From Balanoglossus misakiensis (Eukaryota > Animalia > Hemichordata): a stretch of DNA of 64,000 nucleotides. The stretch lies in assembly GCA_040954595.2 (NCBI GenBank), contig CM082582.2:2464303-2528302 (forward strand), given 5' to 3'. The translations under genes were made by a program, and so were the position numbers. The notes beneath the pieces are model-generated. The model worked only from the letters and a program-made list of their open reading frames with translations, did not search any database and had not been told where the DNA came from. How positions within the stretch are numbered: the stretch's first letter is position 1; each line of letters starts with the position of its first letter. Of the stretch, positions 28,800-58,756 are shown one piece after another.

Positions 28800-30059
28800 T
28801 TAAGATGTAAGATGTAGATTAGCCATGTCACCTTCAACATCATGATGATCAGCTGACACACCAAGTTTTCGGAACATCTCATGTATTTCTTCTCTGGCAG
28901 CGTAGACATCACAACTTCCTTGCTCAAAAATTTTAACCAGGTTGGAAAAATTGCTCTTACAGAATTTCTTATCTGCAGTTGGCTGTTGGCCTGCACGTTG
29001 TTGTCCTCCACAGCCCTTGGACCAAACAGATAAAGCATGTTGTGTTGGGGATTGAATCAATGCACTGTATTGCCATGAATCCACCTCCATGCGAGGGATC
29101 CCCATCAAGTCTGCCATAGCCCTGTAGTCATTGCCGGATAAACGGATGATATCCATGATATTAGAAAATATCTTGAGGGCATCCTTCAGCATCCACTTGA
29201 CACCACTTTCATATCCACTGTGTCAGAGGATGGTTGTATCATACCCAGCACAAAGAAAGTCAGTAGCTGCTTCTGAAATCACCATCTCCTCGTTGTACAC
29301 CTTCTCATTCCTCTCTTCTGCTTCCCGAATTTGCTTCAATGTATAGAATGTGACATCTTCAGGGTTGCGATGGATTTGAAGAGAATCTGAACTCAACACG
29401 TGGATGTCAAGTCTTGTACCAGGACAGCAGATCTCTAACACTTCATAGACAATATCAGTTATTGTCTCTAATAATTTGTAGCATTCGCCGATTTCCTCTT
29501 CTTTCTCTGCTCTAACACAAACATGGATAGCTCTCCAACCTTTTGTCATATACACCAAGCCTTCTGCATTGTGACACACTTTGATGCCATTTTTCCATAT
29601 ACCACTTGTCCGTCGGTTGATCTTTCGTAAATGGCGTTCTATTCGGGCGTTAAGTCGGGGGGAAAATCCTGGCGAGAAACTATCAGCATCATCTCTGCAT
29701 TGGAACCGTCTACCATAGTAAATCTTCTTAGTAGCATCCTGTTTCCACTGATTTGCAGGCATATCTGTGTCCAACAACTCAGGTATTACATACCCAGTTA
29801 CAGTATTGGATTCAGAAATGACCTCGTAGAGAAGGGCAAACTCTTTGAGAAGATTTATCAGCAAATCAATATCTGCCAGACCATGGAAAACTTCCTCAAT
29901 TTCGCTTCTCATATGTAAGGACTTCCGTGGCAAGCGGTTTGCAAACTGCTCAAATATTTCAGGAGCCAGCATGGGACCGAATATTCTAGAACATAACCAT
30001 TGGGGATCAAGAACAATGACGTCATCTGAATCTGGTAGGGTACTCTCGATTTGGAACAT
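28800..30059 (-). CDS. Last exon: COR C-terminal part plus death domain; in-frame TGA at 29223-29225
   Basis: Acceptor ttcacag|ATG TTC. ORFs 29223-30059 and 28800-29192 are in frame. Death-domain-like NDYRAMADLMGI...SPTQHALSVW. Confidence 0.8.
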
Positions 30060-33400: not shown

Positions 33401-33731
33401 AGTGCATCGGGTATGTTTGCTACAAACCATGTATTGTCACTTGGTGAAGTTTTTAGACGCAATATGTACAGTTTTAAGTGTAGACTCGAAAATTCTTCTA
33501 ATGTTTTACTTGATGCGATCTGTTCATCAGATAGAGCGACTGACAGCATATTTTTCAAACATTGGCGAAAGCAATTGTATATCATGTAATTTTGCAGAGT
33601 TTTTTTTTGTGTGTGTGTGTCTCAGTTTCAGATTTTCCAGAGTATTTTCATTAGTGTTTTTTTTCTTCTCTCTTTTGGGTATATGGACTTTTTTTAAAGT
33701 CTGAAATAAAGTATTATTATTATTATTATTA
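30420..33731 (+). mobile_element. 5'-truncated, decayed RTEX-like LINE in the last intron of the ROCO gene (antisense to it)
   Basis: ORF1 remnant 30464-30757 with ATGA overlap into ORF2 (SFNCRS, LQEHWL, GRPYGG, NYRPIAL, DASKAFD, GVRQGGVLSP, YADD) ending at 33589. Frameshift at the G-run near 30985 and stops at ~31350 and ~32465. gaaataaag followed by a (TAT)n tail at 33712-33731. 5' boundary approximate. Confidence 0.8.
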
Positions 33732-34358: not shown

Positions 34359-37300
34359 CTCCCCAAGGTAGTGAAGGTATCTCGTAGCTTTCTTTAGAAA
34401 CTCTTCATCAATGAAACGATCCAACTCTTTCACTCTTTCTATATATGTTTTCCATTTGATGACCGGGAAACTGCTCACAATCCATTTGCTTCTTCCATCA
34501 AGTATCTTAGCACACAACTTTGGTATGTATTCTTCTCTCTGTAACATTAACACAGCGACATATACCAGGTTCATGTCCAGACAGGGTAAAATTCAAAACA
34601 TTTCATAGACACTATTTGCCAATAGTAAACACAGAGCATTAATCCTTTAAGTCGCCTTGTGTACACACACACAAACAATGGGTTGCGGAGAGGTGTTAAT
34701 CCTTACACTGGCTCAGGTCTGACCAAAGCCGTCTCAAATCTGAGACGTTTCAGGACCACTTAAACCATTCACACATGATAATTTACGCCAGTATTTCATC
34801 TGAGATGTTTCAAAAACGTCTTAAACCCCGGTGCGGAAAGTCCTGGGGTTCGGATTAACGTGTGTTTGTATAGTTGTTTATTTGGGAGTGGTCGTCGTGC
34901 ATAATGACTGTGTAATTGCTCTCATGTACACAGAAAATAATTGAACACTTCACACTTCCACGCGATTGACAACTGTTTGAATGGCGTGGTTATTGTTTCC
35001 CAGGGACGCTTCTGAAAAGCACTGAAACCAGATTTCTCCCAAAATCATCGTTGTTTCATAAGCTCGTGTACTTTTTCGTCGATAACTTTATGTTGTGTGT
35101 GTTTATAAAGCCAACTACTGTCGTTGTGTGGTGTAATTCTTTATGCTTGGACCTGTTTGGGCCGATTTTCATAGAGCCAAGATCGTTGGTGTTGTCTGTT
35201 GTCAGTCAAACGGCATTAAGATTCGCCACTGATTTGGGGGGTCTTTTATACCCCGCACCGGGGTTTAACGATGACCCCCATAATACTGTTGTTTGGTGAA
35301 ATGAACATTCAGAAAAGCAACTCGAACAATACTGGCAACAGTGATATTCACCCTTTACAGACACAGCCCATTATTTAAAGTCTTGTTCTCACTAAAAGTT
35401 TGGACACCAGTGTTATGCCAGTGTTTACTCTCTGCAAACACAGGGGATTAGCCCACAGAATCTCCTTGCGTCCACACACTAAACTTTTGGCCACTGTTTT
35501 GAAATAAACACTGTCTAAATGGCCATGTTTAGCAACACGGCAACTAACAAAATTGAGGATGTCGAGGACATTACAGCAACATGTTGCAGTTTATATACCT
35601 GCATATACGTTCTAGACGACTTTGTGACAGTTTTGATAATGTTTAGAAGTAAATGAATGTTAATCCATAAATGGAAAATGCCTCGGCTTTTTGGTGATCG
35701 AGAGAACCTTCTGAAAGTTGTTAGCAGACTGAAGTGTTGCAGACCTGGCAAACTGCGAATGGTTTGAAAACCACTCGCATCCAGTGTGATTGACTTAACA
35801 ATGGAAACTGACCAAAGACAATGGGCTATACCTAATAAACATACCCAAAAGTCACTGCAGGGTGGCGCTTTTGAACGGTGTTTGTTTATCTTTGCGTTCT
35901 CACTGATTATTTGCGTCGGAGCGCTGGCCCAGCACTGGCCCTGACCCACCACCCATCGCTGTCGCAAATTAACACCGGCCCAACACCGGTGTAAAGCACT
36001 TGTTTTTTTCCGTCGGTGTCAAATCTACACCGATGTAGCACCAGTGTAAACGTGCCAGTGAGAACGCCCTTTTAGACGTTTCTGATACCCGGTAAGTCAA
36101 AAGTATACAACCTTGACTTATTTCCCACTGATAAGAGTTCAGTTATTACTATCTGATAGTTGGCTTTCTTGGACTCTATGCATTACATGAAAGTATTAAG
36201 GTGATGTAAAGCATGCCTTTGTCAAATATGGCCCTAATGAATTAACATGTTCAATCCAGTCACACATTGCAGAATATCTATAAAACCATACCTTTGCACT
36301 TCGTAGACATTCACGCAATCTGTGCATATCATTATGCTGCGAGTTGTGACAATTCAGTATGAATGTCTCATCAAGAATATTCAGGTATTTGCCAAAGGTC
36401 TTCTGAGCTGTCTGGAGTATTTCCCTCATCACCAATTCAGCTATCAAGAAAAAAGTAATGATCTCTTGATAGATTTTTATTTACAAAGTATGGACATATA
36501 CACAGAAGAGGCCACTTTGGTGCTGTTTTGTATTTTTTGAAAGCATCCGGTGAAATTCTACATCAATCACACTATCTGAATAGGTAAAATGTTGAATAGT
36601 AATGAGATCTCCTTTTGCATAGGTTCAGATGTAGTATGGGTGTCCCTTTCGAACAGAACAGCCAAGAATCAGCAAAGGTAAAGACAGCGCCCAACACTAC
36701 ATCTGGTTTTAATCAGATTGAGTGTACTCCCACACCAGGCTCCCAATTGTGTGAATACCCTCGCTCTTGTCACCTTTTATCTAAACATGTACTGAACATA
36801 CCTTCTTTCTTGTGTTCAGCTTTCAACAAATCAGCCTTGCTTCCAATCAATATCACTTTTGGTTTACTCCCACCCTCATCCATATCTTGTGATATGATTG
36901 CCTTAAGGAATGCAAGCCATGATGTCACCTATTAAAGAAAGACATGAAGAAGAATATAAAGTCATCAATCATATTATATTCAATCAGTCCCTAAATCTGG
37001 ATAAAAACAAAAAGAGATAAATGTTTCACAAATATATATACTGTGCCATTCATCTTTACTTTAATTTCATTCACAATATTGCACCACCTAATTCACTGAT
37101 GCACTGCTTAGTAATAAAAAAAATATTGTAATATATGCACTGTGCCCTTTCTGAGTTTCATCTTTACCTTTATTCCATAATTGCCCAAAATATTAATATC
37201 ACTTATCATCAGTAACAAAAAAACAACGACCCACCTCTTGTCTCTGCTGTTGCATAAGTTTTCTTGGTGTCCAAACTACATCCTGCTTGTCCTCAGCCAT

Positions 37301-38090
37301 TTTGAAGACCAATAAAACCACTGCATTCTCGACTCTTAGGAACATATTATGTGTGACATAGTATTCTGTTTGTCCTGCAAAGTCCCACACACTGAACTTG
37401 CCAATCTTGGGTATGGATAATGTGGCTACATCTATGGCGGGTGTTGGTGTGTACTGCATGTTCCCTGGTAAAGGTGCTTTCTCTTCTGACCGTCGAGTCA
37501 ATTTTGCTTGCACAAAGTTCTGCATTGTAATATATGAACATAAGTGATGATTTTCTCACAATTTAGAGGTTGTAAACTTATAAACGGCAAGCGAGAGTAT
37601 TTGATTCCGGATATAAGACCTCCCAGGTGAAACTTAGCATATTTGGTGGGAAATAATCACTGAGCGAGGCGAGGCGTTCTGTTCTATGTGTCCCATTTCG
37701 GTTATTTTTTAGTTATTCACTGTTCAGGGTTCAGGTCTTCTCGTTGAGGATATAAACCGCGACTCGGGCCAATCAGCAAGCTTGATTAATGCCAATCATA
37801 TTGTAATAATATAAAATATTTGGAGAATTGGTTGGTCAACAAAATATGTACCGTGATTTCCACTGAAATGTAGTCTTCATGAAAACTTTAATATTTGCAC
37901 AAATCCTTCACTCCTCAAAAACAGCAATAATTGGCATTCATAATCAAATATTTCTACACACCCGCTGCAATGATTCTTTGAGTGTAGTTTTGCCATTCCC
38001 ACCGTATCCAGCTAACACAATCTTTGTAGTATTACGTTTGACACCAGGTTGTCACATGAGTGCTGTGAATTCTTTTTGGCGGGAAAACAC
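34359..38090 (-). CDS. ROC GTPase and COR N-terminal exons (37962-38090, 37235-37519, 36802-36928, 36292-36440, 34359-34538)
   Basis: All exons have AG/GT boundaries and compatible phases. KIVLAGYGGNGKTTL, TPTPAIDV, WDFAGQTEYYVTH, VILIGSKAD, YLHYLGE. In-frame TGA at 38052-38054, just before the P-loop. Confidence 0.85.
35379..36070 (-). mobile_element. Second, inverted copy of the ~0.7-kb MITE at 4731-5425
   Basis: The reverse complement aligns along its length with copy 1; the spurious ORFs 4842-5027 and 35515-35967 give nearly the same peptide. Confidence 0.85.
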
Positions 38091-39079
38091 CTGTCAGAAT
38101 TTGAACAGATATGTTATGTGTTATATATATTGGGAATTTTTACACTCAATTTACATGCCTTTCAATTAAACACCATGTCTTCAAAGAAGTCACATGACAT
38201 TTTGCTTCAGAAAAGATATTGATAAAAACGCTAGTATCAAAAAATATAATTTACATTGTTAACTACACTATTATGATGTGCTTATGATGTGGAAGCTATC
38301 ATTAACACTATAGAAATAATGCATAGTTAAAGCCTCATGAGCTGCCAAATTTAACATATTTTTTCCATAACTTCTATTTGCATAAGTTTGTCATCTCTTT
38401 GTGACGCACACCTCGATAGTTGTGTACTCTTTGTGTATATTCAACATTGTTATTTTGCAAAATTTGAATTGAAGTCCGGACTAGAATTCATGAGTCAACA
38501 ATAACAATGGTTGTTACAGAGACAGGCAATATACACAAGTTGAGTACTGGGCATATTAGCATGCAGTTTGGAGAAGAACATGAAATTGCATTTTGTACAC
38601 AAAAGGAAAAAAATCTGGAAATAAAGCCAAAAGTTATAGGTAATGTCCCTTTAATGCCTTCCTAGCTGGCACAATAGAATAAGTATGTAGTTAAAAATTT
38701 ATATGACAGTCTGGTTTTATGTTTTCCATGTTATAAATATAGAAGATAAATTCAAATACACTAGTGATATGATATGTTTTCATAGCCATTTATTATCAAC
38801 ATTACGACGTACATTATGATGGTTGATCAGGTCTCTTTTGTCATCTCTGTCATACACTGAGTTTATAACTGCCTGTATTTTCATTGATGAAAACAGAACA
38901 TGTATGATTGATTATATTATACCAGTATATTGATGGTGTAAATCACGCTATTTTATTGGTCGAGACACGACACGTGACTGTGATATATTAGCCATATACC
39001 ACAGTCATATAGCATAGTCAAAGAAAATGCCTTTTTAAAATGTTTTATGCAAAGTTTCAATATACTGGCATAATATAAT

Positions 39080-39680: not shown

Positions 39681-39791
39681 CTGATATACTTTCTCATTGT
39701 CAAAATGATATTCCACAAAGGCTCTTGCAATATTGGTGCCTGCACCCCGCCCAGCCTTCCTTCCTGCCTCTTGACAAGGAGTCACTACGTT
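39681..39791 (-). CDS. Ankyrin-cap/linker exon with a GC splice donor
   Basis: ttttcag|AAC GTA GTG ACT CCT ... TAT CAG|gcaagt. The 111-bp exon is phase 0 and joins the last array exon to the ROC exon in frame. Confidence 0.6.
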
Positions 39792-40514: not shown

Positions 40515-43500
40515 TTCAATACTTTCAGAATTAACCTGCAGAAGTCAGGTTGGTATTTACCTTGTTTTGTATGGTCACATCAGCTTTGTGTTCCAATAAC
40601 AATCTGACATGGCCTTCATCACCATCCCTTGCTGCATAATGCAAAGGAGTGTCTCCATCCTGTAAGTAATAAAGGAGGAGCATGATAATAATGTCACAAA
40701 AATTGAAATATAATGTGAAATTTCCTTAAACAAAAAAAAAAAAAATATATTTCAATACTTTCAGAATCAACCTGCAGAAGTCAGGTTGGTATTTACCTTG
40801 TTATGTATGTTAGCATCAGCTTTGTGTTCCAATAACAATCTGACAAGGCCTTCACCACCATCCCTCCTTGCTGCATCATGCGAAGGAGTGTCTCCATCCT
40901 GTAAGTAATGAAGGAGGAGCATGAGAATAATGTCACAAAAATTGAAATCTAATGTGAAATTTCCTTAAACAAACAAACAAACAAATAAATGAATAAATAA
41001 ATCCGCATTGATAGAATAAACCTGCTGAAGTCAGGTTGGTATTTACCTTGTTTTGTATGTTAGCATCAGCTTTGTGTTCCAATAACAATCTGACAAGGCC
41101 TTCACCACCATCCCTCCTTGCTGCATCATGCGAAGGAGTGTCTCCATCCTGTAAGTAATGAAGGAGGAGCATGAGAATAATGTCACAAAAATTGAAATCT
41201 AATGTGAAATTTCCTTAAACAAACAAACAAACAAACAAATAAATGAATAAATATATCCACAGTGATAGAATAAACCTGCTGAAGTCAGGTTGGTATTTAC
41301 CTTGTTTTGTATGTTAGCATCAGCTTTGTGTTCCAATAACAATCTGACAAGGCATTCACCACCAACCCTCCTTGTTGCATAATGCAAAGGAGTGTCTCCA
41401 TCCTGTAAGTAATGAAGGAGGAGCATGAGAATAATGTCACAAAAATTGAAATATTATGTGAAATTTCCATAAACAAACAAACAAACAAATAAATGAATAA
41501 ATATATCCGCATTGATAGAATAAACCTGCAGAAGTCAGGTTGGTATTTACCTTGTTTTGTATTGTCACATCAGCTTTGTGTTCCAATAACAATCTGACAA
41601 GGCCTTCACCACCAACCCTCCTTGCTGCATAATGCAAAGGAGTGTCTCCATCCTGTAAGTAATAAACGAGGAGCATGAGAATAATGTCACAAAAATTGAA
41701 ATATAATGTGAAATTTCCTTAAACAAAAAAAAAAACAAAAAAATATTTCAATACTTTCAGAATTAACCTGCAGAAGTCAGGTTGGTATTTACCTTGTTTT
41801 GTATGTTAGCATCAGCTTTGTGTTCCAATAACAATCTGACAAGGCCTTCACCACCATCCCTCCTTGCTGCATCATGCGAAGGAGTGTCTCCATCCTGTAA
41901 GTAATGAAGGAGGAGCATGAGAATAATGTCACAAAAATTGAAATCTAATGTGAAATTTCCTTAAACAAACAAACAAACAAATAAATGAATAAATATATCC
42001 GCATTGATAGAATAAACCTGCTGAAGTCAGGTTGGTATTTACCTTGTTTTGTATGTTAGCATCAGCTTTGTGTTCCAATAACAATCTGACAAGGCCTTCA
42101 CCACCATCCCTCCTTGCTGCATCATGCGAAGGAGTGTCTCCATCCTGTAAGTAATGAAGGAGGAGCATGAGAATAATGTCACAAAAGTTGAAATCTAATG
42201 TGAAATTTCCTTAAACAAACAAACATACAAATAAATGAATAAATATATCCGCATTGATAGAATAAACCTGCTGAAGTCAGGTTGGTATTTACCTTGTTTT
42301 GTATGTAAACATCAGCTTTGTGTTCCAATAACAATCTGACATCGCCTTCATCACCATCCCTTGCTGCATAATGCAAAGGAGTGTCTTCATCCTGTAAATA
42401 ATAAAGGAGGAGCATGAGAATAATGTCATAAATATTGAAATATAATGTGAAATTTCCTTAAACAAAAAAAAAACAACAAAATATTTCAATACTTTCAGAA
42501 TTAACCTGCAGAAGTCAGGTTGGTATTTACCTTGTTTTGTATGTTAGGATCAGCTTTGTGTTCCAATAACAATCTGACAAGGCCTTCACCACCATCCCTC
42601 CTTGCTGCATCATGCGAAGGAGTGTCTCCATCCTGTAAGTAATGAAGGAGGAGCATGAGAATAATGTCACAAAAATTGAAATCTAATGTGAAATTTCCTT
42701 AAACAAACAAACATACAAATAAATGAATAAATATATCCGCATTGATAGAATAAACCTGCTGAAGTCAGGTTGGTATTTACCTTGTTTTGTATGTAAACAT
42801 CAGCTTTGTGTTCCAATAACAATCTGACATCGCCTTCATCACCATCCCTTGCTGCATAATGCAAAGGAGTGTCTTCATCCTGTAAATAATAAAGGAGGAG
42901 CATGAGAATAATGTCATAAATATTGAAATATAATGTGAAATTTCCTTAAACAAAAAAAAACAACAAAATATTTCAATACTTTCAGAATTAACCTGCAGAA
43001 GTCAGGTTGGTATTTACCTTGTTTTGTATGTTAGGATCAGCTTTGTGTTCCAATAACAATCTGACAAGGCCTTCACCACCATCCCTCCTTGCTGCATCAT
43101 GCGAAGGAGTGTCTCCATCCTGTAAGTAATGAAGGAGGAGCATGAGAATAATGTCACAAAAATTGAAATCTAATGTGAAATTTCCTTAAACAAACAAACA
43201 AACAAATAAATGAATAAATATATCCGCAGTGATAGAATAAACCTGCTGAAGTCAGGTTGGTATTTACCTTGTTTTGTATGTTAGCATCAGCTTTGTGTTC
43301 CAATAACAATCTGACAAGGCATTCACCACCAACCCTCCTTGCTGCATAATGCAAAGGAGTGTCTCCATCCTGTAAGTAATGAAGGAGGAGCATGAGAATA
43401 ATGTCACAAAAATTGAAATATTATGTGAAATTTCCATAAACAAACAAACAAACAAATAAATGAATAAATATATCCGCATTGATAGAATAAACCTGCAGAA

Positions 43501-46500
43501 GTCAGGTTGGTATTTACCTTGTTTTGTATGGTCACATCAGCTTTGTGTTCCAATAACAATCTGACATGGCCTTCATCACCATCCCTTACTGCATAATGCA
43601 AAGGAGTGTCTCCATCCTGTAAGTAATGAAGGAGGAGCATGAGAATAATGTCACAAAAATTGAAATATAATGTGAAATTTCCTTAAACAAAAAAAAAACA
43701 AAAAAATATTTCAATACTTTCAGAATTAACCTATAGAAGTCAGGTTGGTATTTACCTTGTTTTGTATGTTAGTATCAGCTTTGTGTTCCAATAACAATCT
43801 GACACGGCCTTCATCACGAAACCTTGCTGCATAATGCAAAAGGGTGTCTCCATCCTGTAAGTAATGAAGGAGGAGCATGAGAATAATGTCACAAAAATTG
43901 AAATCTAATGTGAAATTTCCTTAAACAAACAAACAAATAAATGAATAAATATATCCGCATTGATAGAATTAACCTGCAGAAGTCAGGTTGGTCTTTACCT
44001 TGTTTTGTATGTTAGCATCAGCTTTGTGTTCCAATAACAATCTGACAAGGCCTTTGCCAACCCTCCTTGCTGCATAATGCAAAGGAGTGTCTCCATCCTG
44101 TAAGTAATGAAGGAGGAGCATGAGAATAATGTCACAAAAATTGAAATATTATGTGAAATTTCCATAAACAAACAAACAAACAAATAAATGAATAAATATA
44201 TCTGCATTGATAGAATAAACCTGCAGAAGTCAGGTTGGTATTTACCTTGTTTTGTATGGTCACATCAGCTTTGTGTTCCAATAACAATCTGACATGGCCT
44301 TCATCACCATCCCTTACTGCATAATGCAAAGGAGTGTCTCCATCCTGTAAGTAATAAAGGAGGAGCATGAGAATAATGTCACAAAAATTGAAATATAATG
44401 TGAAATTTCCTTAAACAAAAAAAAACAAAAAAATATTTCAATACTTTCAGAATTAACCTAAAGAAGTCAGGTTGGTATTTACCTTGTTTTGTATGTTAGC
44501 ATCAGCTTTGTGTTCCAATAACAATCTGACACGGCCTTCATCACGAAACCTTGCTGCATAATGCAAAAGGGTGTATCCATCCTGTAAGTAATGAAGGAGG
44601 AGCATGAGAATAATGTCACAAAAATTGAAATCTAATGTGAAATTTCCTTAAACAAACAAACAAATAAATGAATAAATATATCCGCATTGATAGAATTAAC
44701 CTGCAGAAGTCAGGTTGGTCTTTACCTTGTTTTGTATGTTAGCATCAGCTTTGTGTTCCAATAACAATCTGACAAGGCCTTTGCCAACCCTCCTTGCTGC
44801 ATAATGCAAAGGAGTGTCTCCATCCTGTAAGTAATGAAGGAGGAGCATGAGAATAATGTCACAAAAATTGAAATATAATGTGAAATTTCCGTAAACGAAC
44901 AAACAAACAAATAAATGAATAAATATATCCGCACTGATAGAATAAACCTGCAGCAGTCAGGTTGGTATTTACCTTGTTTTGTATGTAAACATCAGCTTTG
45001 TGTTCCAATAACAATCTGACATGGCCTTCATCACCATCCCTTGCTGCATAATGCAAAGGAGTGTCTCCATCCTGTAAGTAATAAAGGAGGAGCATGAGAA
45101 TAATGTCACAAAAATTGAAATATAATGTGAAATTTCCTTAAACAAAAAAAAAACAAAAAAATATTTCAATACTTTCAGAATTAACCTGCAGAAGTCAGGT
45201 TGGTATTTACCTTGTTTTGTATGTTAGCATCAGCTTTGTGTTCCAATAATAATCTGACAAGGCCTTCACCACCATCCCTCCTTGCTGCATCATGCGAAGG
45301 AGTGTCTCCATCCTGTAAGTAATGAAGGAGGAGCATGAGAATAATGTCACAAAAATTGAAATCTAATGTGAAATTTCCTTAAACAAACAAACAAACAAAT
45401 AAATGAATAAATATATCCGCAGTGATAGAATAAACCTGCTGAAGTCAGGTTGGTATTTACCTTGTTTTGTATGTTAGCATCAGCTTTGTGTTCCAATAAC
45501 AATCTGACAAGGCATTCACCACCAACCCTCGTTGCTGCATAATGCAAAGGAGTGTCTCCATCCTGTAAGTAATGAAGGAGGAGCATGAGAATAATGTCAC
45601 AAAAATTGAAATATTATGTGAAATTTCCATAAACAAACAAACAAACAAATAAATGAATAAATATATCCGCATTGATAGAATAAACCTGCAGAAGTCAGGT
45701 TGGTATTTACCTTGTTTTGTATGGTCACATCAGCTTTGTGTTCCAATAACAATCTGACATGGCCTTCATCACCATCCCTTACTGCATAATGCAAAGGAGT
45801 GTCTCCATCCTGTAAGTAATGAAGGAGGAGCATGAGAATAATGTCACAAAAATTGAAATATAATGTGAAATTTCCTTAAACAAAAAAAAACAAAAAAATA
45901 TTTCAATACTTTCAGAATTAACCTATAGAAGTCAGGTTGGTATTTACCTTGTTTTGTATGGTCACATCAGCTTTGTGTTCCAATAACAATCTGACACGGC
46001 CTTCATCACGAAACCTTGCTGCATAATGCAAAAGGGTGTCTCCATCCTTTAAGTAATGAAGGAGGAGCATGAGAATAATGTCACAAAAATTGAAATCTAA
46101 TGTGAAATTTCCTTAAACAAACAAACAAACAAATAAATGAATAAATATATCCGCATTGATAGAATTAACCTGCAGAAGTCAAGTTGGTATTTACCTCGTT
46201 TTGTATGGTCACATCAGCTTTGTGTTCCAATAACAATCTGACAAGGCCTTCACCACCATCCCTCCTTGCTGCATCATGCAAAGGAGTGTCTCCATCCTGT
46301 AAGTAATGAAGGAGGAGCATGAGAATAATGTTACAAAAATTGAAATCTAATGTGAAATTTCTTTAAACAAACAAACAAACAAACAAACAAACAAACAAAC
46401 AAATAAATGAATAAATATATCCGCATCAATAGAATAAACCTGCAGAAGTCAGGTTGGTATTTACCTTGTTTCGTATGTTAGCATCAGCTTTGTGTTCCAA

Positions 46501-47430
46501 TAACAATCTGACAAGGGCTTCACCATCATCCCTCCTTGCTGCATCATGCAAAGGGGTGTCTCCATCCTGTAAGTAATGAAGGAGGAGCATGAGAATAATG
46601 TCACAAAAATTGAAATCTAATGTGAAATTTTCTTAAACAAACAAACAAACAAATAAATGAATAAATATATCCGCATTGATAGAATAAACCTGCAGAAGTC
46701 AGGTTGGTATTTACCTTGTTTTGTATGGTCACATCAGCTTTGTGTTCCAATAACAATCTGACAAGGCCTTCACCACCATCCCTCCTTGCTGCATAATGCA
46801 AAGGGGTGTCTCCTGTCTGTAAGTAATGAAGGAGGAGCATGAGAATAATGTCACAAAATTGAAATGTAATGTGAAATTTCCTTAACCAAACAAACAAACA
46901 AACAAACAAATAGACAAACACACAATAAAACGAATAAATATATCCGCATTGATAGAATTAACCTGCAGAAGTCAAGTTGGTATTTACCTCGTTTTGTATG
47001 GTCACATCAGCTTTGTGTTCCAATAACAATCTGACAAGGCATTCACCACCATCCCTCCTTGCTGCATAATGCAAAGGGGTGTCTCCTGTCTGTAAGTAAT
47101 GAAGGAGGAGCATGAGAATAATGTCACAAAATTGAAATGTAATGTGAAATTTCCTTAAACAAACAAACAAACTAACAAACAAACAAACAAATAGACAAAG
47201 ACACAAACAAATGAATAAATATATCCGCATTTATAGAATTAACCTGCAGACGTCATGTTGGTATTTACCTTGTTTGGTATGGTCACATCAGCTTTGTGTT
47301 CCAATAACAATCTGACAAGGCCTTCACCACGACACCCTCTTACTGCATAATGCAAAGGGGTGTCTCCATTCTGTAAGTAATGAAGGAGGAGCATGATGAG
47401 AATGTCAAGAAAAATTAAATGTAACATGAG
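40515..47430 (-). repeat. Tandem array of 28 ~237-281-bp units, each one 99- or 102-bp phase-0 ankyrin exon plus its intron
   Basis: Exon left (plus-strand) coordinates: 40561, 40797, 41047, 41301, 41551, 41793, 42043, 42293, 42531, 42781, 43018, 43268, 43518, 43756, 43999, 44246, 44483, 44726, 44973, 45211, 45461, 45711, 45948, 46195, 46465, 46715, 46988, 47269. Consensus ttacag|DGDTPLHYAAR(R)DG.EG.VRLLLEHKAD..IQNK|gtaaa. Confidence 0.95.
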
Positions 47431-50139
47431 GTTATTTTGTTAAAATGAACGATCGAACAAACACACAAACGACAAATAATCGCAAACTCCCTTGTGGATA
47501 ATATTAACCAACAGTAAATGTCATTTGAACAGAAACAGTATCGACTCTACACACAAGATGTGTAATTCAGTTTTATACATGCATTTTAACGAGCTTAAAG
47601 AATTCTGACAAAATATCTGCCAGTTGATACAGAAAGAAAAGTTACTATAAATAATTCACAAACAAACTCAAATTTGACAACTTGCAAAACAGATAACATT
47701 ACGGATAACCAATACACCAATTTTAAACTGAACTTTATTTATGATTTTCTATCAAAAAACTGACAGTGATGTGATGTTAGTGAACATTTCCTGAATGGGA
47801 CCAATTTATTTTTGCAACCTGCACAATATAGAAGAAGATTTAGCAAACAACTACAGTGACATTTAGTAGAATTGTCAGAAGAATTTTGAATAATCACATC
47901 TCATCTCCAATATGATGACAAATTTGAGATATGTGGAGATTTATGTGGAAACAGATCAAACATCTGAGCTAACCAAACTATGTTTATTTCCTGTAGGAGG
48001 GCATCAGACTGTTCTCAGCACAAAGTAGCCAAGCTGTGCAGACTGAACGATGTCGATCAAAGGGGAAATAACAGAGAAATTGTATGTGACAAGGGATAAA
48101 TCAATCATCATTAAAATAAATTTCTACTGAGTGGTCCAACAATATCAAGTAGAGTTGTGCAATGGTGTCACTCGTTATTTGTAGAAATAGTGTTTAAATA
48201 AAAACAACTTGAATTTCACCAAAAAAAAAAAAACATCTGAAGAAAGTTAACACTGATTCCCTTTCTCCATCGCACTGCATCAAAAAGTCTAATAACCAAA
48301 GAAAGACTTCAGTGGACACTGTGGCCAATGGGAATGTGTGGCAAACAAAATTAAATGCAATGAATGCAGTCATTCTTTTCATGTAATATAAAGAACAAAC
48401 AAAATTATCAAAACTCTTCATAAGAGATAACATTGGAAGCCACAGTAGCACTAACTTTCAAGGACATTTGTGTAACCATTCCAGCCGTGCCCCACACTAA
48501 AACAGAACAGATTGGACCAGTCACACTTCCCTTAATCCTATTGTTCCCAATGTTTATCTCATCAATATATCTATTGCATGCTTTTAGCACCTTCTCTCAG
48601 GTTCTGGAACCTGGTTGGTTAAAACTTGCTGTTCTGGCCATCTTGATCACCCCCTTTGAAATGATTGGGTAAGTGACAGACAGTGATGAGAAGCTGAGGA
48701 GTGGAGCCGCACAGACCTCATGTTTTATAAGCTTGAGCTATTTCCAAGAGAAAGAGCAATCCAAATGCTGCCGCTGTGTTGCTCAGAATGATGAAAAAAA
48801 TCATCCGACTGAACAATTTAATGTTAAATGTATTATATTTTATAAAGTTTATAAAAGGTAAATTGGGTTGGCACTGTGCTATTCGGCCTGAAGTACAAGC
48901 TAAAACTGGCCGACTCCTCTCGGCACCGTCAACAAGCACCCCTGCCCCCAGCAAGTCCCCAACTTGACATGTGTGATGTGACCATGGCTGCGCATCCGTC
49001 CTTCGGTCCTAAAAGTTGCCAAACAAACCCTTTTTTAAAACGGCCCCAATCAGAGCCGCAATGAAAACAAGTTCTTCTGGTAAAGTCTTACTCAAAATGT
49101 TGCTATGACTATAATTCTGACACAAAACTGAGCATGAGTGTGGACTGATTGCATAAACATATTTTGAAAGTACTTCCTGTAAAAAAGGGAGGAGGCTCCA
49201 CAAACCAGACTATTTTTGTTTATGTACATGATGTACTTGTGCGAGGGTTGTCAACTTGATAGCCATTCTCAAGATTTACAATCATTATAAGAGTGTACGT
49301 ATACAAGAAAAGTAAATTCCTGAATATTAAAGGGACAAAGTCTCTCTCTCTCTCGCTTCCCTTTTTCCATTAATTATGTTTGATACAAGACACTGTTTAT
49401 GTTATTCTACATGTGTATGTAGTGAATTAACGTTCGACCACACACAAATATGCAAAGGAGAATTTATTAATAAGCCATACCCACCAAAATCTTATCAGAT
49501 CTAGAACTTATCATAACAATGCTACATACAAAATTTCATATCATTGGATTCAATTTCTCTCAAGATATGAGTGGAACAAAATCTGTCTACAGAAGGACAG
49601 ACAGAAATCGCTGTGCCAATAATGAGATTATTATTTAAACCACAAAAGATTGACGATAAACAATGCAATAAACAACAACATCCTTATGTTCAACAAGACA
49701 GTTTTTGGCAGATGCTGGAGACAATCCCCTTTTCTCATAACTCCAAATTGCTCACAGTGGAGATCAAATGTCTCAGATATAGGAGAGACAATCACATCAC
49801 CATAATGAATCAATACTTGCCTGTGTCTGGACAACACCTGGCCGAGAGGAAGTAGTTTTGATTCAAAGGACAGTGACAAATTATATGGCACCTCCTTATG
49901 ATGAATTGTATTAGGTACCAGACAGGAGTTGGCAGATGCTGGAGTCCGACAGACAATCACCCTATCTGATACGTTCAGTGATAGGATTGGCATGGACTGT
50001 CATCAGTCTATCTGTACAACACCTGACCAATGGAGGGAGTAGTTTTGATTCAAAGGGCAATGGACAAATATATACATTGTATCCCAGACACAATTTACTA
50101 AGAAAACTACAGAGGAAATGGCACTATTGAGAAAGCTCA

Positions 50140-50660
50140 TACTTTTAGAATTTACCTGCAGAAGTCAGGTTGGTATTTACCTTGTTTTGTATGGTTACAT
50201 CAGCTTTGTGTTCCAATAACAATCTGACACGGCCTTCACCAACATCCCTCCTTGCTGCAGAGTGCAAAGGGGTGTCTCCCCACTGTAAGTAATGAAGGAG
50301 GAGCATGAGAACAATGTCACAAAAATTAAACGTAATGTGTAATTTTCCTTAAACAAAAAACATACAAACAAACAAACAAACAAAAAATGAATGAATAAAT
50401 CATTCCATACTGATAGATTAACCTGCAGAAGTCAAGTTGGTATTTACCTGGGTTTGTATGGTAACATCAGCTTTGTGTTCCAATAACAATCTGACACAGC
50501 CTTCACCACCAAACCCTGCTGCATCATTCAAAGGGGTGACTCCATCCTGTAAGTAATGAAGGAGAAGCATGGGAACAATGTCACAAAAATTGAAATGTAA
50601 TATGAGGTTTCTTTAAACAAACAAACAAACAAACAAACAAACCTACAAATAAATAAACAA
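50140..50660 (-). CDS. Two detached, more diverged units of the same ankyrin exon-intron family (exons 50181-50282 and 50448-50546)
   Basis: WGDTPLHSAARRDVGEGRVRLLLEHKADVTIQNK and DGVTPLNDAAGFGGEGCVRLLLEHKADVTIQTQ, with the same intronic flanks as the array. Confidence 0.88.
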
Positions 50661-51363: not shown

Positions 51364-51462
51364 CTCATCCTTCGCATTGACATCTGCACCATGGCTAATC
51401 AACATCCTGACAGCATCCAATTTACCTTTGAAGGACGCTGCATGCAATGCTGTGGAATCATT
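51364..51462 (-). CDS. Unique ankyrin exon
   Basis: ttccag|NDSTALHAASFKGKLDAVRMLISHGADVNAKDE|gtacgt; 99 bp, phase 0. Confidence 0.88.
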
Positions 51463-52716: not shown

Positions 52717-52815
52717 CTGTCCTGGGTATTTACCCCTTGCATTGACATCATATCCATCAGATATCAGCGACTGAATCTTTGCAACATCACCCTTCACTGC
52801 GGCATTGATTAGATT
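52717..52815 (-). CDS. N-terminal capping ankyrin exon (first visible exon of the ROCO gene)
   Basis: gttacag|NLINAAVKGDVAKIQSLISDGYDVNARGKYPGQ|gtaagt; 99 bp, phase 0. Confidence 0.85.
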
Positions 52816-53396: not shown

Positions 53397-54487
53397 AAGA
53401 AAATGAGACAAAAGCCCCCCTAGCTCCTAATTTACAAAAACTGGGACAGTTAATGCCATAATACAAATATAAATTTGTGAAACACACCACGCTGGATTGA
53501 GGTAGAAGTAAGGCTTTTAATACCCAAACAAGAAACTCGCTTAACAAAACTTAATAAATTACAGAGAAAAACACAAGTGTCAATAAATGAACAATAAAAC
53601 TAAAATACACTAGTCTAGCTATTCAAAGTAAAAAAAACGCTAATCTAAAATTGGGAGGGGGCCCCTTCAGTCAAGCGGTCGAACCTGGCCCTGTGGGTGA
53701 ATCCATCCTGACAGGCCGAAATGTGAGGGAGGTTGTGCACTTCCCGAGAGATGGGGGTCAGGATGGAATCCAAGCCGGGTCAGGATGGAATCCAAGGCCG
53801 ACCGCAGGAATGAAGGGGAGAAAGGAAAGGTGGAAGAACGGGGTGGAGGTGGGAAAGACGACGTGACCTGGCTCAAGCAGAGAACTGAAAGAATGAATGA
53901 ATGAATGGGGAAACAAAGGACGCCCAGTCTGACGCTAAGGGCCGTGTGCACAGGCCAAGCTGATTGGTCAGAAACGAAGCAGTAAAGGTCAGCACCAACG
54001 GCGCTGATTGGTCGAGGAAATGTAGGTGGGGCTAGTGAAGACCACCTCGGTGTGTTCACAAAAAGCATCTGTGACACAACACAGATTTTACTTTGTGAAA
54101 CACACCACGCTGGATTGAGGTAGAAGTAAGGCTTTTAATACCCAAACAAGAAACTCGCTTAACAAAACTTAATAAATTACAGGGAAAAACACAAGTGTCA
54201 ATAAATGAACAATAAAACTAAAATACACTAGTCTAGCTATTCAAAATAAAAAAAAACGCTAATCTAAAATTGGGAGGGGGCCCCTTCAGTCAAGCGGTCG
54301 AACCTGGCCCTGTGGGTGAATCCATCCTGACAGGCCGAAATGTGAGGGAGGTTGTGCACTTCCCGAGAGATGGGGGTCAGGATGGAATCCAAGGCCCAAA
54401 CGAAGGAAGAATGACTGAAGTTGACCCCCAAAATAAAGGGAAGTGGAATAGAGGAAATGGGGTGAGATGTTGGAAATGGTGGGAGTG

Positions 54488-54830
54488 GGATCCTGGGGGA
54501 CGGGTCGACCGTGCGAGCCCAGGTGGGAGCGTGGAATGAATGAGCCCAAGGGATCATAACATGATGCGGCTTGGGGGGGAGGGGGGTCCTGGGGGACGGG
54601 TCGACCGTGCGAGCCCAGGTGGGAGCGTGGAATGAATGAGCCCAAGGGATCATAACATGATGCGGCTTGGGGGGGAGGGGGGTCCTGGGGGACGGGTCGA
54701 CCGTGCGAGCCCAGGTGGAAACAGGTGGAACGAATGAGACAATGGAAAGATGTCGCCCAAGGGAACATAAAATGATGCGGCTTGGGTGGGTGTGGTCCTG
54801 GGGGACGGGTTGACCGTACGAGCCCAGGTG
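54488..54830. repeat. ~96-bp G-rich tandem repeat (3.5 units) inside the Ngaro 3' region
   Basis: tcctgggggacgggtcgaccgtgcgagcccaggtgg recurs at about 54491, 54587, 54683 and 54796. Confidence 0.85.
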
Positions 54831-54894
54831 GCATTGTGGTAAAACAAGAGAATGGAGGTAAACTTAACAGAAGGCAAGCGCGAGAAGAAACACT

Positions 54895-55953
54895 CTAATG
54901 ACTGGCAAGCACATGAAAAGCGTGACGCAAGGAGGTCTCGGAGGTTCTAATATACAACTGGTAACAGTCACTAGACCATCTACCTAAGTACTGAATTAGG
55001 TGATCGGGGATGCGAGACGAAGCAGCCATTGTTGCTGCCCCTATTCGGAAGGAATGTCCGGCGAATAGGTTGGCCTGAAGGCCGAGTCGTGCCAGTACAG
55101 TACGAAGCGAAGTTATGAAAGTGTGACGGTCCATAGGGAGTCTGTCCGGCAGGAGAAACAGCGGTTCGCTCGGTGAGGCCTGCATAAGTTGGCGGACGGT
55201 AACAAACCGAAGTAGCATAGAGACTGGGCAAATCTGCGTATATGTTGGGAATAGGCGCAAGTCGAATCCACGACGCAATTGGTCAGTTTTGGACATCTTG
55301 ATGTGGACAGACAAAAAGTTAATGTGGGTATCCGAAGAGTTGATGCTGACGTCGCCAAGGCAGAGATTGGAACTTGCATGGAAATGTTGGGTTGTCATGG
55401 TGAATTCACTGCAACGGAGGAATCCGAAGAATGCCAGAAGGAAGGCTGCCTCTAGCAAAAGGTCAAAGTACGCGCCAAATACACCTTGACGGAGGAGGAG
55501 ACACATACGCCTGAGGATATCCGCAGTGATTGGTAAGCGTGGTCTGGTGGTAGATCCTTGCATCCGTTGAATACCCCTGAGGACGTTTTGGAGGCGTGGC
55601 AAAGACTGGCCGGTCGGTGACAGCAAGGGGTTGTGGTGACCGTACGTGATGTAGTGATTACGGATTCCTGCCAGGTAAACCTTGATCGTACTGAATTTCA
55701 GATTGAGGTTGTCCGCACAGTGGGTAACAAAATAAACCAGCAAATCTTCAGACACGGGTGGCAGGGAAGTATGGTATGAGACGTCTGCGAAGGCGCAAAA
55801 AGACACCCAGGCACGTACCCCAGACGTATACGATCCAGTGGTTCTTCGGCTTAGGGCTGCATCTTGGAACTTGCGTACGGCAGTGTTCAGTGGAACATTA
55901 CATCTGAGGGAATCCGGCAGGGAACTGGATCCGCCGCTGGGGCTTCGTTCCAA
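54895..55953 (-). CDS. Tyrosine recombinase of the Ngaro element
   Basis: Open frame with AFFGFLRCSE, KMSKTDQ, GHSFRIGAAT and LGRWSSDCYQLY (R-K-HxxR-W-Y catalytic set). Confidence 0.92.
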   Translation of the reverse strand: MERSPSGGSSSLPDSLRCNVPLNTAVRKFQDAALSRRTTGSYTSGVRAWVSFCAFADVSYHTSLPPVSEDLLVYFVTHCADNLNLKFSTIKVYLAGIRNHYITYGHHNPLLSPTGQSLPRLQNVLRGIQRMQGSTTRPRLPITADILRRMCLLLRQGVFGAYFDLLLEAAFLLAFFGFLRCSEFTMTTQHFHASSNLCLGDVSINSSDTHINFLSVHIKMSKTDQLRRGFDLRLFPTYTQICPVSMLLRFVTVRQLMQASPSEPLFLLPDRLPMDRHTFITSLRTVLARLGLQANLFAGHSFRIGAATMAASSRIPDHLIQYLGRWSSDCYQLYIRTSETSLRHAFHVLASH

Positions 55954-57445
55954 AACCGTGGCATCTGAAAACGAGAAAGGGAGTCAGCTAGAGAGTTCAG
56001 TCTGCCTGGGATGTGCTTAGCGTGGAACATAAAGTTGTGTGTAGCTGCCAGGATGACCAATCGTCGCATCAATTTCATAATGCTGGGTGATTTCGAACGC
56101 CCTTTGTTGATGATGTGAACTGTGGCCGAATTGTCGCAGTGGAAGAGGATACGTTTTCGAGTCCATAGATGGCCCCATAACAGCGCTGCCACAACAATGG
56201 GGTACTGAGCTCTTGGAAGGCTATTGACAATGTGGGGTCGGAATCAAGTTGAAGACTTTTGCTCCACCGATCTTGGAACCATTGGCCTGCGAAATAGCCC
56301 CCGTAGCCGATACCGCTCGCGTCAGTGTAGAGATCCATGTCGGAGGCAACTATCATGTTGGGGTCAAGAAACATGGATACGCCGTTCCAGCTCTCAAGAA
56401 AGTTGTGCCACATAGCAAGGTCTAGTCTACTTTCCGCAGAAATGGAGATATGATGGTCGAGCTTGTGTGTTGACTTTGATAGCTCAATTAAACGCGAAAT
56501 GAACGTGCGGCCGGGGACCACAACGCGACACGCGAAGTTTAGATGGCCAAGTAGGCTCAGCAACTGCCTTTTTGTGCAGGACTTGGGGTTGAGGAAGGAA
56601 GTGAGCAGCTCGAGGATTCTGGCTAGCTTGTCGCGAGGTAAGCACGCCTCCATTTTGACAGTGTCGAGTATGATGCCGAGATACTCCAGGGAGGTAGTTG
56701 GGCCCACAGTTTTGTGTGGGGCGATAGGGATACCGAGACAAATAAACAGCAGAGTCAGCAAAGCCATGGTGCGATCAGCATCGAAGGACGGGGGGTCAAC
56801 GGTGAGGAAATCATCCAGAAGATGGAAAATGGTATTGATGCCGTAGACGTGGTGAGCAATCCAGGATACCGCGCAAGAAAGCGAATCAAAGATCTTCGGG
56901 CTAGAACGCGAACCGAATGGGAGACGAACGAAGAAGTAGAATTGATCATCCCACTGGATACCATACAGGTGCCATAGCGACGGGTGTATAGGTATCAGTT
57001 TGAAGGCATCTACTATGTCAGTTTTGCAGAGCCACGAGCCTTTTCCTGACTTGAGGATGGCAGAAACAGCGTCGTCAATTTTAACGTAGGAAAGGCTGAA
57101 TTCCTCTTTGTCAATGAGGTCATTGATGCTAGAGATCGCGGGGTCATTGCGCGGTGAGGAGAGGTCAACGATGAGACGCTTCTTTGTAGAATACTTCTTA
57201 TCTGCCAGACCGATTGGACTGCAACGAAAATTTGCAAATGGGGGTTGGTCGAACGGGCCAGCTAGGTACCCCTTTTTCACTTCTGTATTTATCAGTTCGG
57301 AAACCGCTTCGGGCTGAGAACGCGCTGACAATAAATTGCGGCCGAAGAAGGAAGAGGAGGGTGCATTGCGGACGCCAGTGTGAAATCCCTGTTGCAGACT
57401 CGAGATGAGGTAGTTGACAAAGGCGCGGTCGGGGTGAGAGGTCAA
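55887..57445 (-). pseudogene. Ngaro reverse transcriptase / RNase H with one frameshift
   Basis: KRLIVDLS, DIVDAFKLIP, LPFGSRSSP, HLLDDF, YTDASG. The frame changes near 56205 (ELSTP instead of ELYPIV) into WGHLW...HCDNSATV...HIPGRLNSLADSLSR. Confidence 0.9.
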
Positions 57446-57496
57446 ATGGTGGGCGAGGCTGTCGATCTCAATAGGTGTGGACGGCTTGGTGGGTAG

Positions 57497-58756
57497 TCAA
57501 TTTTGGGGTCGCTGTTTGCCCGAGCACTTGCCCTGGGCTCTGCTGTGGTCGCCGGAGAAGCAGATTGAACAGCAATGGGCGAAGGAACAGTTATCTCTCT
57601 TGCAACCCGTGGGCGAATTGAAATTATTACAGAGTTCTTTACCCTGGTGGAAAACGCGGGGACGTCCTTTCCAGTCCTGTGATGACGATTGCGATGGTGC
57701 GGAGGAGGATTGCGATGGTGCGGAGTTAACCGATTTCTTGCTGCCCGGAGCAAGTTGTGGACAAATCTCAGTAGCGTGGGCTACACTTCCGCAAAGGTTG
57801 CACAGGGCAGCCCGCAGCCCGGAGAAAATAGAACAATATAAGGTGGTGTCCCGGCGTGACCAATCCACCTTAATGTTGTGGTTTAACAGCAAAGCCGCGG
57901 CCCTAGCGGAAAATGCACGGTGGTACTCATAAAAGGCCATGCCACTAAAACGACGCGACATGTCGACTATGTCCCTCTGGTATGAGTCCAATTCCTCGCG
58001 GCGATTCGGATAAACCTCGCACATAACGTTCTTGTAAACCGAGAAGGCGAGAATGAATTCTTGTATTGTGAGCGAGCGAGCAACCCGTGTATCATGCAAA
58101 GGTCGCAGCGACAGGGCCTCGTCGCCGATTACAATGTGACGCTGGCTATCGTTGAAACTGTACCCCGGAATGAGGAGGCATGCCAAATTGACATCCTTAC
58201 CTGCGAGAATATCTCGACGAAGGGAGGGTGATACCAGTTCGACGTGCGGTAAATTTTCCGAGGAAATACCGCGAGAACGGAGCAGGTCATTGGTAGCGCC
58301 AGAATGGTTGTTGTTAGTGGCCGAGCCCCGGCCGCCATCTTGGAAAGCGTTGGTGTTTTGCTCCATAGGCGGTTGTGACGTCACCGGCGATGACGTCATG
58401 GGTGCGTTGTTGCTGAACCCTGGATTTTGCTGTTCCAAGACTAAGCGCGTCAGGTTGTTGACAGAGTCTTGCAGAGATGTAAACATGGAAGTAGTTACAT
58501 AATTGTTTTGCTGCTCTTGCCTACTGCCTTGGGGGACGTCGGAAAATTCAGGACTGGAACGACGATCGGCTGGAACTTCGTTGTTGTAGCCCTGAACAGA
58601 AGTCGCACAGTTCTCAGTGACCAGTCTATTCAGATCGGTGGTACTCGGCGACGCAGACACGGCATCCGGAGTCGCTGAAGAACGGGATTGAGCTCGGGTA
58701 GTCGGTCTGACGTACGGCTGAGCTGTTGGGACTCGTGATCGACGTCTGGCGGGCAT
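57497..58756 (-). CDS. Ngaro gag-like ORF1 with C-terminal zinc fingers
   Basis: Intact 419-aa ORF; FYEYHRAFS, CNLCGSVAHATEIC, CNNFNSPTGCKRDNCSFAHCCSICFSGDH. Confidence 0.88.
   Translation of the reverse strand: MPARRRSRVPTAQPYVRPTTRAQSRSSATPDAVSASPSTTDLNRLVTENCATSVQGYNNEVPADRRSSPEFSDVPQGSRQEQQNNYVTTSMFTSLQDSVNNLTRLVLEQQNPGFSNNAPMTSSPVTSQPPMEQNTNAFQDGGRGSATNNNHSGATNDLLRSRGISSENLPHVELVSPSLRRDILAGKDVNLACLLIPGYSFNDSQRHIVIGDEALSLRPLHDTRVARSLTIQEFILAFSVYKNVMCEVYPNRREELDSYQRDIVDMSRRFSGMAFYEYHRAFSARAAALLLNHNIKVDWSRRDTTLYCSIFSGLRAALCNLCGSVAHATEICPQLAPGSKKSVNSAPSQSSSAPSQSSSQDWKGRPRVFHQGKELCNNFNSPTGCKRDNCSFAHCCSICFSGDHSRAQGKCSGKQRPQN

Follow-up and report, generated by a model that had tools for sequence, protein, structure and literature searches.

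A tandem array of ankyrin exons in a probably disabled ankyrin-ROC-COR-death-fold gene of the acorn worm Balanoglossus misakiensis

Analyses of a 64,000-nt stretch of Balanoglossus misakiensis DNA (the window) identified a minus-strand gene model of 40 exons, ordered ankyrin, ROC, COR and death fold, in which 30 near-identical ankyrin exon-intron units precede a GTPase module and two premature stops interrupt the reading frame. Our preferred interpretation is that this is probably a recently disabled copy from a fast-turnover, NLR-like family of sensor GTPases.

A sequence-only reading had described 28 tandem and 2 detached ankyrin units with stop-free, phase 0-0 exons of 99 or 102 bp bounded by AG and GT, and all of these features were recovered in 30 of 30 units. 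Every unit lies on the minus strand and none is inverted; the exons are 102 nt long in 17 cases and 99 nt in 13, no in-frame stop occurs in any of them (0/30), and one acceptor reads AAG and two donors GTAAAG. One of the units matched Pfam Ank at E 1.5e-5. The pattern of one repeat per symmetric exon, all in phase 0-0, extends from the 30 units to two divergent exons. Within the 28 tandem units the mean identity is 92% for exons (85-100%) and 95.5% for the intron flank blocks, and the 30 exons comprise 23 distinct DNA sequences encoding 22 protein types. With 4.6% of single changes creating a stop, the probability that the array would be stop-free by chance was 0.09-0.16 for 39-51 changes, so the missing stops alone are weak evidence. 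The features of the gene are as follows.

52717..52815, minus strand: exon 1 of the model, a divergent N-terminal ankyrin repeat (99 nt, phase 0-0; 58% to residues 10-40 of relative P0002)
51364..51462, minus strand: exon 2, a second divergent ankyrin repeat (99 nt)
50448..50546, minus strand: first detached array-type ankyrin exon (99 nt)
50181..50282, minus strand: second detached array-type ankyrin exon (102 nt), followed by a 2810-nt intron
40561..47370, minus strand: tandem array of 28 units, each an ankyrin exon of 99 or 102 nt plus an intron of 137-179 nt
39681..39791, minus strand: capping ankyrin-like exon (111 nt, GC-AG donor), which aligns with the last repeat of relatives
38813..38872, minus strand: linker exon (60 nt), matching relatives as judged by eye
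37962..38090, minus strand: ROC P-loop exon, exon 35 (129 nt, phase 0-0), containing premature stop 1
38052..38054, minus strand: premature stop 1, TGA at model codon 1143, ahead of the P-loop; relatives have K, N, R, Q or T there
37235..37519, minus strand: ROC exon with the switch motifs (Pfam Roc E 5.4e-8)
36802..36928, minus strand: ROC exon (127 nt)
36292..36440, minus strand: ROC exon (149 nt)
34359..34538, minus strand: COR-A exon (180 nt)
28800..30059, minus strand: last exon, with the end of COR-A, COR-B, the death fold and TAA
29223..29225, minus strand: premature stop 2, TGA at codon 1699, after COR-B and ahead of the death fold; 6 of 9 relatives have Arg there
28803..29222, minus strand: six-helix death fold, severed by stop 2

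The array had been said to feed a ROC-COR-death domain module. The downstream exons are indeed present and splice in frame, but TGA codons at 38054-38052 and 29225-29223 interrupt the reading. Pfam Roc, COR-A and COR-B all matched exons of the window, with ROC directly followed by COR, the COR scores being below the curated cut-off, and the predicted model of P0002, an intact relative, has a Roco fold (LRRK2, LRRK1 and C. tepidum Roco at E 1e-17 to 1e-15). The GTPase motifs G1, G3 and G5 are like those of the relatives; next to the G2 threonine a G is replaced by A, and G4 deviates. The proposed identity of the tail as a death domain was supported by its predicted model (pLDDT 68, six helices), whose structural matches to the Pelle death domain (Z 11.5, rmsd 2.6, 99 aligned), IRAK2 (10.7) and MyD88 (10.4) indicate a true death fold. 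All 16 of the 16 best rows in the structural search were death domains, and weaker scores came from Foldseek (E 0.09) and Pfam Death (E 0.028). Upstream of 52815, a search for a start exon gave 13 weak candidates, none resembling the starts of relatives, and candidates for an extra exon in the 2.8-kb intron had no ankyrin-like translation.

Both TGA columns are sense codons in every aligned relative. Selenocysteine or an altered code was excluded for both, as the relatives have Arg, Lys or Asn and one run reads CGA. With two in-frame TGA codons, the full-length protein cannot be made from the window copy. We compared the window with contigs of three runs of one sample from one study; the main contigs differed from it in the coding sequence by five replacement changes (one being the stop) and one silent change, among the 40 of 239 rows listed. 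At stop 2, run X1 has CGA and run X2 has TGA. A 942-nt contig with two other differences from the window retains stop 1, which is thus not private to the assembly of the window, and at position 38054 no alternative letter at a 1% share was among those listed for the three runs. The contigs of run X1 break at 38053/38085, exactly at stop 1; this could represent a fork with room for an intact allele, and contigs drop alleles. Neither frameshifts nor lost splice sites were found in the 40 exons, which, together with the intact G1, G3 and G5 motifs, indicates that the decay is young or partial.

The proposal that unequal crossover made the array was borne out by five duplicated blocks of 2-3 units each, whose duplicates differ by 0-4 substitutions per unit, and by four-gamete analysis, in which 64 of 465 site pairs were incompatible, with an Rm of 4 as the minimum number of recombination events among units. 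Incompatibility grew with distance between sites (p 0.04). The near-identical introns had been credited with driving exchange; three of the four minimal recombination intervals are wholly within the exon, so that the introns have no special driving role and the exchange of whole exons accounts for only some of the process. Both exon length changes are of 3 nt.

The earlier proposal of a rapidly remodelled binding solenoid was not supported for the window copy, based on the two TGA codons, a pN/pS not significantly above neutral (1.13-1.48, p 0.28-0.45) and core damage in most repeats: a polar or Pro residue occupies buried positions in 18 of 30 repeats, versus 0 of 67 in four relatives. Replacement rates in the array exons (0.34-0.40) were close to the intron rate (0.31-0.34), and the damaged units tended to be younger (p 0.051). 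The distribution of the 32 amino-acid variants along the repeat may reflect past selection. Helix 2 carries none of them (scan-corrected p 0.0006), and 11 of the 32 are at binding-face positions (enrichment p 0.026-0.044), which we take to be those of DARPins. The intron also holds an invariant run, of 20 nt (helix 2 versus intron p 0.014), which weakens the argument from helix-2 conservation. The variability profile along the repeat correlated with those of three of four relatives (p 0.004-0.04). Of the 147 columns of the ROC-COR-death portion that are otherwise invariant, 18 (12%) differ in the window copy, compared with 3-14% in similarly distant relatives.

The closest relatives are kinase-less ‘DAPK1-like’ ANK-ROC-COR-death proteins of acorn worms, so named by automatic annotation, from Ptychodera (XP_070546803.1, XP_070550397.1 and XP_070546714.1), Glandiceps (XP_077996865.1) and Saccoglossus; the last exon has 51-57% identity to the six best hits. 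These hemichordate proteins share the domain order, a similar repeat consensus and the skippable ROC exon sizes (43 and 92 aa) with the window gene, but have 3-19 repeats, whereas the window array is longer (30 + 3) and younger and has two stops. In a quick tree the window gene joined eight Ptychodera rows (SH-aLRT 99), with DAPK-like rows as the outgroup. Ptychodera family members form 16 clusters, of which 6 are on one contig and 10 have no ankyrin in the model; no second ROC-COR locus of the 64,000-nt window was among the tblastn matches listed for 5 of 9 relatives. Near-identical ankyrin repeats were found in 7 of 57 relatives having at least 3 repeats, from acorn worms, a brittle star and amphioxus, and apparently intact relatives reach near-identical arrays of ~25 repeats. 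The C-terminal tails swap among death, CARD, caspase and GT4 (glycosyltransferase), with GT4 or caspase in P0051 and P0046. As had been suggested, the family looks NLR-like, its ankyrin repeats being nearly identical and its effector tails exchanged among members, but the window copy is probably disabled. An ankyrin-only search gave generic ankyrin proteins only (26-38%).

Several other interpretations were weighed against a recently disabled copy. We think it unlikely that the locus encodes a functional variable receptor of which the window happens to carry one null allele, with intact alleles segregating as in plant and fungal NLRs. Such a locus would fit the polymorphism of stop 2, the X1 contig break at stop 1, the frame and splice sites kept in 40 of 40 exons, the intact G1, G3 and G5 motifs and the binding-face bias of variants; however, position 38054 showed no other listed letter at a 1% share in three runs, the differing X2 haplotype also reads TGA there, and 18 of 30 repeats have core damage. 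It is quite improbable that the gene serves as a decoy or signalling-dead sensor through a shortened product, either ankyrin-only (1142 codons) or, with the P-loop exon skipped, ankyrin plus a dead ROC and COR (1655 codons). The 30 ankyrin exons are stop-free and stop 1 sits in an in-frame exon (exon 35, phase 0-0) whose 43-aa orthologue is absent from RefSeq isoform X2 of a Ptychodera paralogue, but that isoform is a computed model and damaged repeats would destabilise the solenoid. In addition, stop 1 is 831 nt upstream of the last exon junction, and a premature stop far before that junction is a standard decay signal.

An ordinary 250-nt tandem repeat that contains an exon by chance and grew by neutral expansion within a dead gene, never having been a variable sensor, would account for the pN/pS values, the similarity of replacement and intron rates and the modest improbability of a stop-free array. 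We consider this very doubtful in light of the helix-2 conservation and binding-face bias, the 3-nt size of both length changes and the similar arrays of up to ~25 repeats in apparently intact relatives. The array was read from the assembly alone, yet that it is an assembly artefact is extremely improbable given 23 distinct sequences among 30 exons, duplicated blocks that differ by 0-4 substitutions per unit and a longest exact internal match of 359 nt; the unit count could still be wrong by one or two blocks.

Returning to the disabled-copy interpretation, the layout likely serves to vary a putative immune sensor, and the family may have an immune role, judging from this layout and by analogy. 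In intact members the ankyrin solenoid would bind a foreign or damage ligand, ROC-COR would serve as a switch controlled by GTP, and a death-fold adaptor would be recruited through the death fold. Since exon and intron are duplicated as one phase-0 unit of 250 nt, germline unequal crossover and conversion at any point within it would alter repeat number and produce mixed half-repeats while keeping the frame. At the window locus, the array may have diversified first as coding sequence. Stop 1 would then have severed the GTPase, nonsense-mediated decay likely removing the transcript, and further expansion of the array would have gone along with a build-up of damaged repeats and the appearance of stop 2.

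Repeat-shuffling sensors have been described in brown algae and fungi, and sensing within animal cells is for the most part attributed to NLRs. We tentatively suggest, by analogy, that acorn worms, echinoderms and amphioxus may possess an undescribed NLR-like receptor class built on ROC-COR rather than a STAND ATPase, with an ankyrin surface rebuilt by recombination of exon-plus-intron cassettes, swapped death, CARD, caspase or glycosyltransferase tails, and alleles born and killed fast, the window locus being just lost or a segregating null. If this speculation is correct, invertebrates related to vertebrates would have a second class of sensor that arose by convergence, and the GTPase module of LRRK2 and DAPK1 would be placed in an immune setting. 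The window copy, being broken, is a signpost only, although it displays the DNA mechanism clearly in its phase-0 units, block duplications and crossovers within exons. The older Roco surveys of Marin 2008 and Civiero 2014, cited in PMC11378527, may describe the architecture. No paper on animal ankyrin-ROCO exon arrays, nor any study of the hemichordate ‘DAPK1-like’ proteins, was found in the literature outside subscription journals, and passages of PMC6321704, PMC9334734 and PMC12373286 do not mention such arrays.

The brown-algal LRR-ROCO and NB-ARC-TPR candidate receptors have one repeat per symmetric exon and recombination of the repeat domain, and many of their loci are disrupted, at least half in Ectocarpus (PMC3341825, PMC11378527). 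The algal ROCO genes share all of these properties with the window gene, but their repeats are LRRs in phase 2 and spare exons are inverted or inactivated, whereas the window has ankyrin repeats in phase 0, a death-fold tail and no such exons (0/30), all being on the coding strand with splice sites. Fungal NLRs with ANK, TPR or WD repeats of high internal conservation have >85% identity, variable inner-helix and hairpin positions and effector swapping (PMC4986451). The window exons, at 92% DNA identity with several identical, are above that level, which is defined over 100 aa, and its family has the same variable positions and swapping of effectors; the fungal proteins, however, use a NACHT or NB-ARC (STAND) NTPase, in contrast to the ROC-COR, N-terminal sensor and intron inside the repeat unit of the window gene. 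Bacterial LRR-AP-GTPase-COR conflict proteins combine a repeat sensor, Roc-COR and variable C-terminal effectors including GT4 and caspase, and the supplement of the same paper includes animal Roc-COR proteins with ankyrin, DED and caspase (PMC8195603). The sensor, Roc-COR and swappable effector are thus shared, but the window family is animal and ankyrin-based with exon-cassette repeats.

DAPK1 has the same ANK-ROC-COR-death order as the window family. DAPK1 also has an N-terminal Ser/Thr kinase and calmodulin-binding segment; a kinase domain is absent from 14 of 14 relatives scanned, and for the window gene the search for a start exon gave the weak candidates mentioned above. DAPK1 has 8 ankyrin repeats, whereas the window family is multi-copy with a repeat number of 3-33.

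Analyses of the window revealed that an animal ROCO gene contains a clear array of exon cassettes. A ~250-nt tandem repeat fills 40.5-47.4 kb of the window, and each repeat consists of one ankyrin exon and its intron, read on the minus strand. The sequence-only reading had counted 28 units in tandem and two detached, and the same total of 30 was obtained here, with the detached units at 50.2 and 50.5 kb. Its description of the exons also held in all 30, which are 99 or 102 nt long (102 nt in 17, 99 nt in 13), phase 0-0, bordered by AG/GT and stop-free. Among these exons, 23 distinct sequences encode 22 protein types. Mean identity in the tandem block was 92% for the exons and 95.5% for the intron flank blocks.

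Placement of relatives by tblastn, together with reading of splice sites, produced a gene model of 40 exons (52815 to 28800, 1839 codons). The model opens with two divergent ankyrin exons, which are followed by the 30 units and by a capping exon whose donor is GC. A linker then leads into ROC, COR-A, COR-B and a helical domain at the C terminus; no start exon was found in the window by this approach. A DIRS-type retrotransposon, whose three long ORFs are listed below and whose split terminal repeats are 97-99% identical, lies immediately upstream of the first ankyrin exon identified and may separate that exon from the start exon or promoter:

53454-59091, minus strand, DIRS-type retrotransposon
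57497-58768, minus strand, its gag-like ORF
56075-57496, minus strand, its RT ORF
54895-55983, minus strand, its tyrosine recombinase ORF

The top sequence matches were "DAPK1-like" models of Ptychodera flava, Glandiceps and Saccoglossus (nine hits, 36-57%), which points to an acorn worm as the probable source of the window. Judged by domain content the gene is a ROCO. The model of an intact relative, P0002 (pLDDT 84), matched LRRK2, LRRK1 and bacterial Roco. The predicted C-terminal tail has six helices and matched the death domains of Pelle (Z 11.5, rmsd 2.6 over 99 residues), IRAK2 (10.7) and MyD88 (10.4), which were tied. The ROC, COR and death-fold exons that the array had been said to feed are present, but the frame is cut by two TGA codons, at 38054-38052 directly before the P-loop (stop 1) and at 29225-29223 before the death fold (stop 2). 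Both had been overlooked in the sequence-only reading; its observation was largely right and its interpretation half right, as this gene copy is broken.

The window copy probably yields no full-length protein. Both TGA columns are sense codons in every aligned relative, with Arg at stop 2 in six of nine. The locus was covered by three DNA runs, all from one sample, and these listed no other letters at stop 1. Stop 2 reads CGA in run X1 and TGA in run X2, as might be expected if a null allele of a live gene were segregating, and the X1 contigs end at 38053/38085, near stop 1, a break that could hide a dropped allele. However, TGA is also read at stop 1 in an X2 contig of 942 nt that has two differences from the window elsewhere, and we consider a live-gene null unlikely. 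A truncated decoy seems more doubtful. The exon with stop 1 is in phase 0-0, and a RefSeq isoform of a Ptychodera paralogue lacks its 43-aa counterpart; skipping of the stop 1 exon would remove the stop and the P-loop together. Nevertheless, stop 1 is 831 nt upstream of the last exon junction, and since a stop far before that junction normally leads to transcript decay, decay is expected here.

The proposal that near-identical introns drive unequal crossover was upheld as to unequal exchange between units. Blocks of two or three units are repeated in the array and differ by 0-4 substitutions per 182 nt (units 20-21/22-23, 13-15/16-18, 8-10/17-19, 24-25/28-29 and 10-11/27-28), and 64 of 465 informative site pairs failed the four-gamete test. 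At least four exchanges are needed, three of them inside the exon, and identical front halves of units are paired with different back halves, indicating that exchange occurs anywhere in the unit, exon included, and that half-repeats are mixed. Phase 0 merely preserves the reading frame during such exchange. An assembly artefact is scarcely credible, as the longest exact internal match is just 359 nt, which disfavors a collapsed or duplicated array. Selection signals were mixed. A neutral repeat would account for the overall pN/pS of 1.13-1.48 (p 0.28-0.45) and for a replacement rate equal to the intron rate, but is very improbable given that ankyrin helix 2 held none of 32 amino-acid variants (scan-corrected p 0.0006), a signal tempered by a 20-nt invariant run in the array intron, and that six positions, which we take from DARPin numbering to be the binding face, held 11 of 32 (p 0.044; 14 of 40 in all units, p 0.026). 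Ser, His, Arg, Asp or Pro occurred at buried positions, picked after seeing the window's changes, in 18 of 30 window repeats versus 0 of 67 repeats of four relatives. Damaged units tended towards the youngest (p 0.051). We infer that the array fits early diversification under selection, then expansion under relaxed selection.

The significance of the locus rests with the family more than with the window copy. Sequence searches identified 16 Ptychodera clusters, some of which may be haplotigs or split models; six were on one 23-Mb contig and ten had no ankyrin repeats in the model. A profile search returned 1095 representatives at E <= 0.001 (best 150 of 1095 listed). At least three ankyrin repeats were present in 57 of 175 relatives examined, and seven of these (six genes) had two or more repeats >=85% identical to another: Amphiura XP_072045771.1 (24 detected), Saccoglossus, Branchiostoma, Ptychodera (2) and Glandiceps. 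One repeat per exon was seen at the window locus only, the relatives being known as proteins. A kinase domain was found in none of 14 relatives scanned, whose tails included death (4), CARD (5), caspase (1) and GT4-conflict (1). ANK-ROC-COR is joined to CARD and caspase in P0046, to a GT4-conflict glycosyltransferase in P0051 (amphioxus), and to doubled death and CARD modules in P0057 (brittle star), which has about 25 near-identical repeats. In P0004 (Ptychodera) a retroelement-like domain, PF18701, is attached to the exon that caps the ankyrin repeats, which probably reflects mis-annotation at an unmodelled array.

Brown-algal ROCOs (PMC3341825, PMC11378527) carry a single LRR in each exon, show recombination and positive selection, contain inverted spare exons and are disrupted at half or more of their loci; the window locus likewise has one repeat per exon, recombination and a disrupted frame, although its repeats are ankyrin. 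PMC4986451 describes fungal NLRs whose ankyrin repeats are >85% identical (92% for the window exons, at the DNA level), vary in number and are under selection on their concave face, and places 0.8% of metazoan ANK/TPR/WD repeats in this highly identical class. Bacterial LRR-Roc-COR proteins exchange effectors (PMC8195603), which is comparable to the varied tails among the relatives here; the supplement matches listed include Roc-COR proteins of animals that carry ankyrin, DED and caspase domains. By analogy, the window locus appears to work like these systems but belongs to none of them. The literature searched yielded no account of such an ankyrin-ROCO exon array in an animal. In intact members, the ankyrin solenoid would be the sensor, remodelled by germline unequal crossover and conversion, ROC-COR would act as a GTP-dependent switch, and the death fold would bring in an adaptor.

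Other elements were also identified in the window:

30742-33589, plus strand, LINE-like element (RT Pfam E 1e-26), stop-broken, antisense within the last intron of the ankyrin-ROCO gene
16486-21383, plus strand, nearly intact L1/Tx1-like LINE with a zinc-knuckle ORF1 and an endonuclease-RT ORF2 with one stop near 20390
6394-11316, plus strand, probable DNA transposon with fragmented ORFs and DUF7869
15705-16158 and 23322-23768, two related 21-nt minisatellites that run in opposite orientations, share about 80% identity and have several open frames
about 28520-28555, minus strand, short last-exon copy (about 35 nt; source near 29270-29300), downstream of the stop codon of the ankyrin-ROCO gene
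35379-36070 and 4733-5423, two inverted copies of a 698-nt element, 94.6% identical

One X2 contig skips 35373-36070, which hints that the intronic copy of the 698-nt element is polymorphic or mobile.
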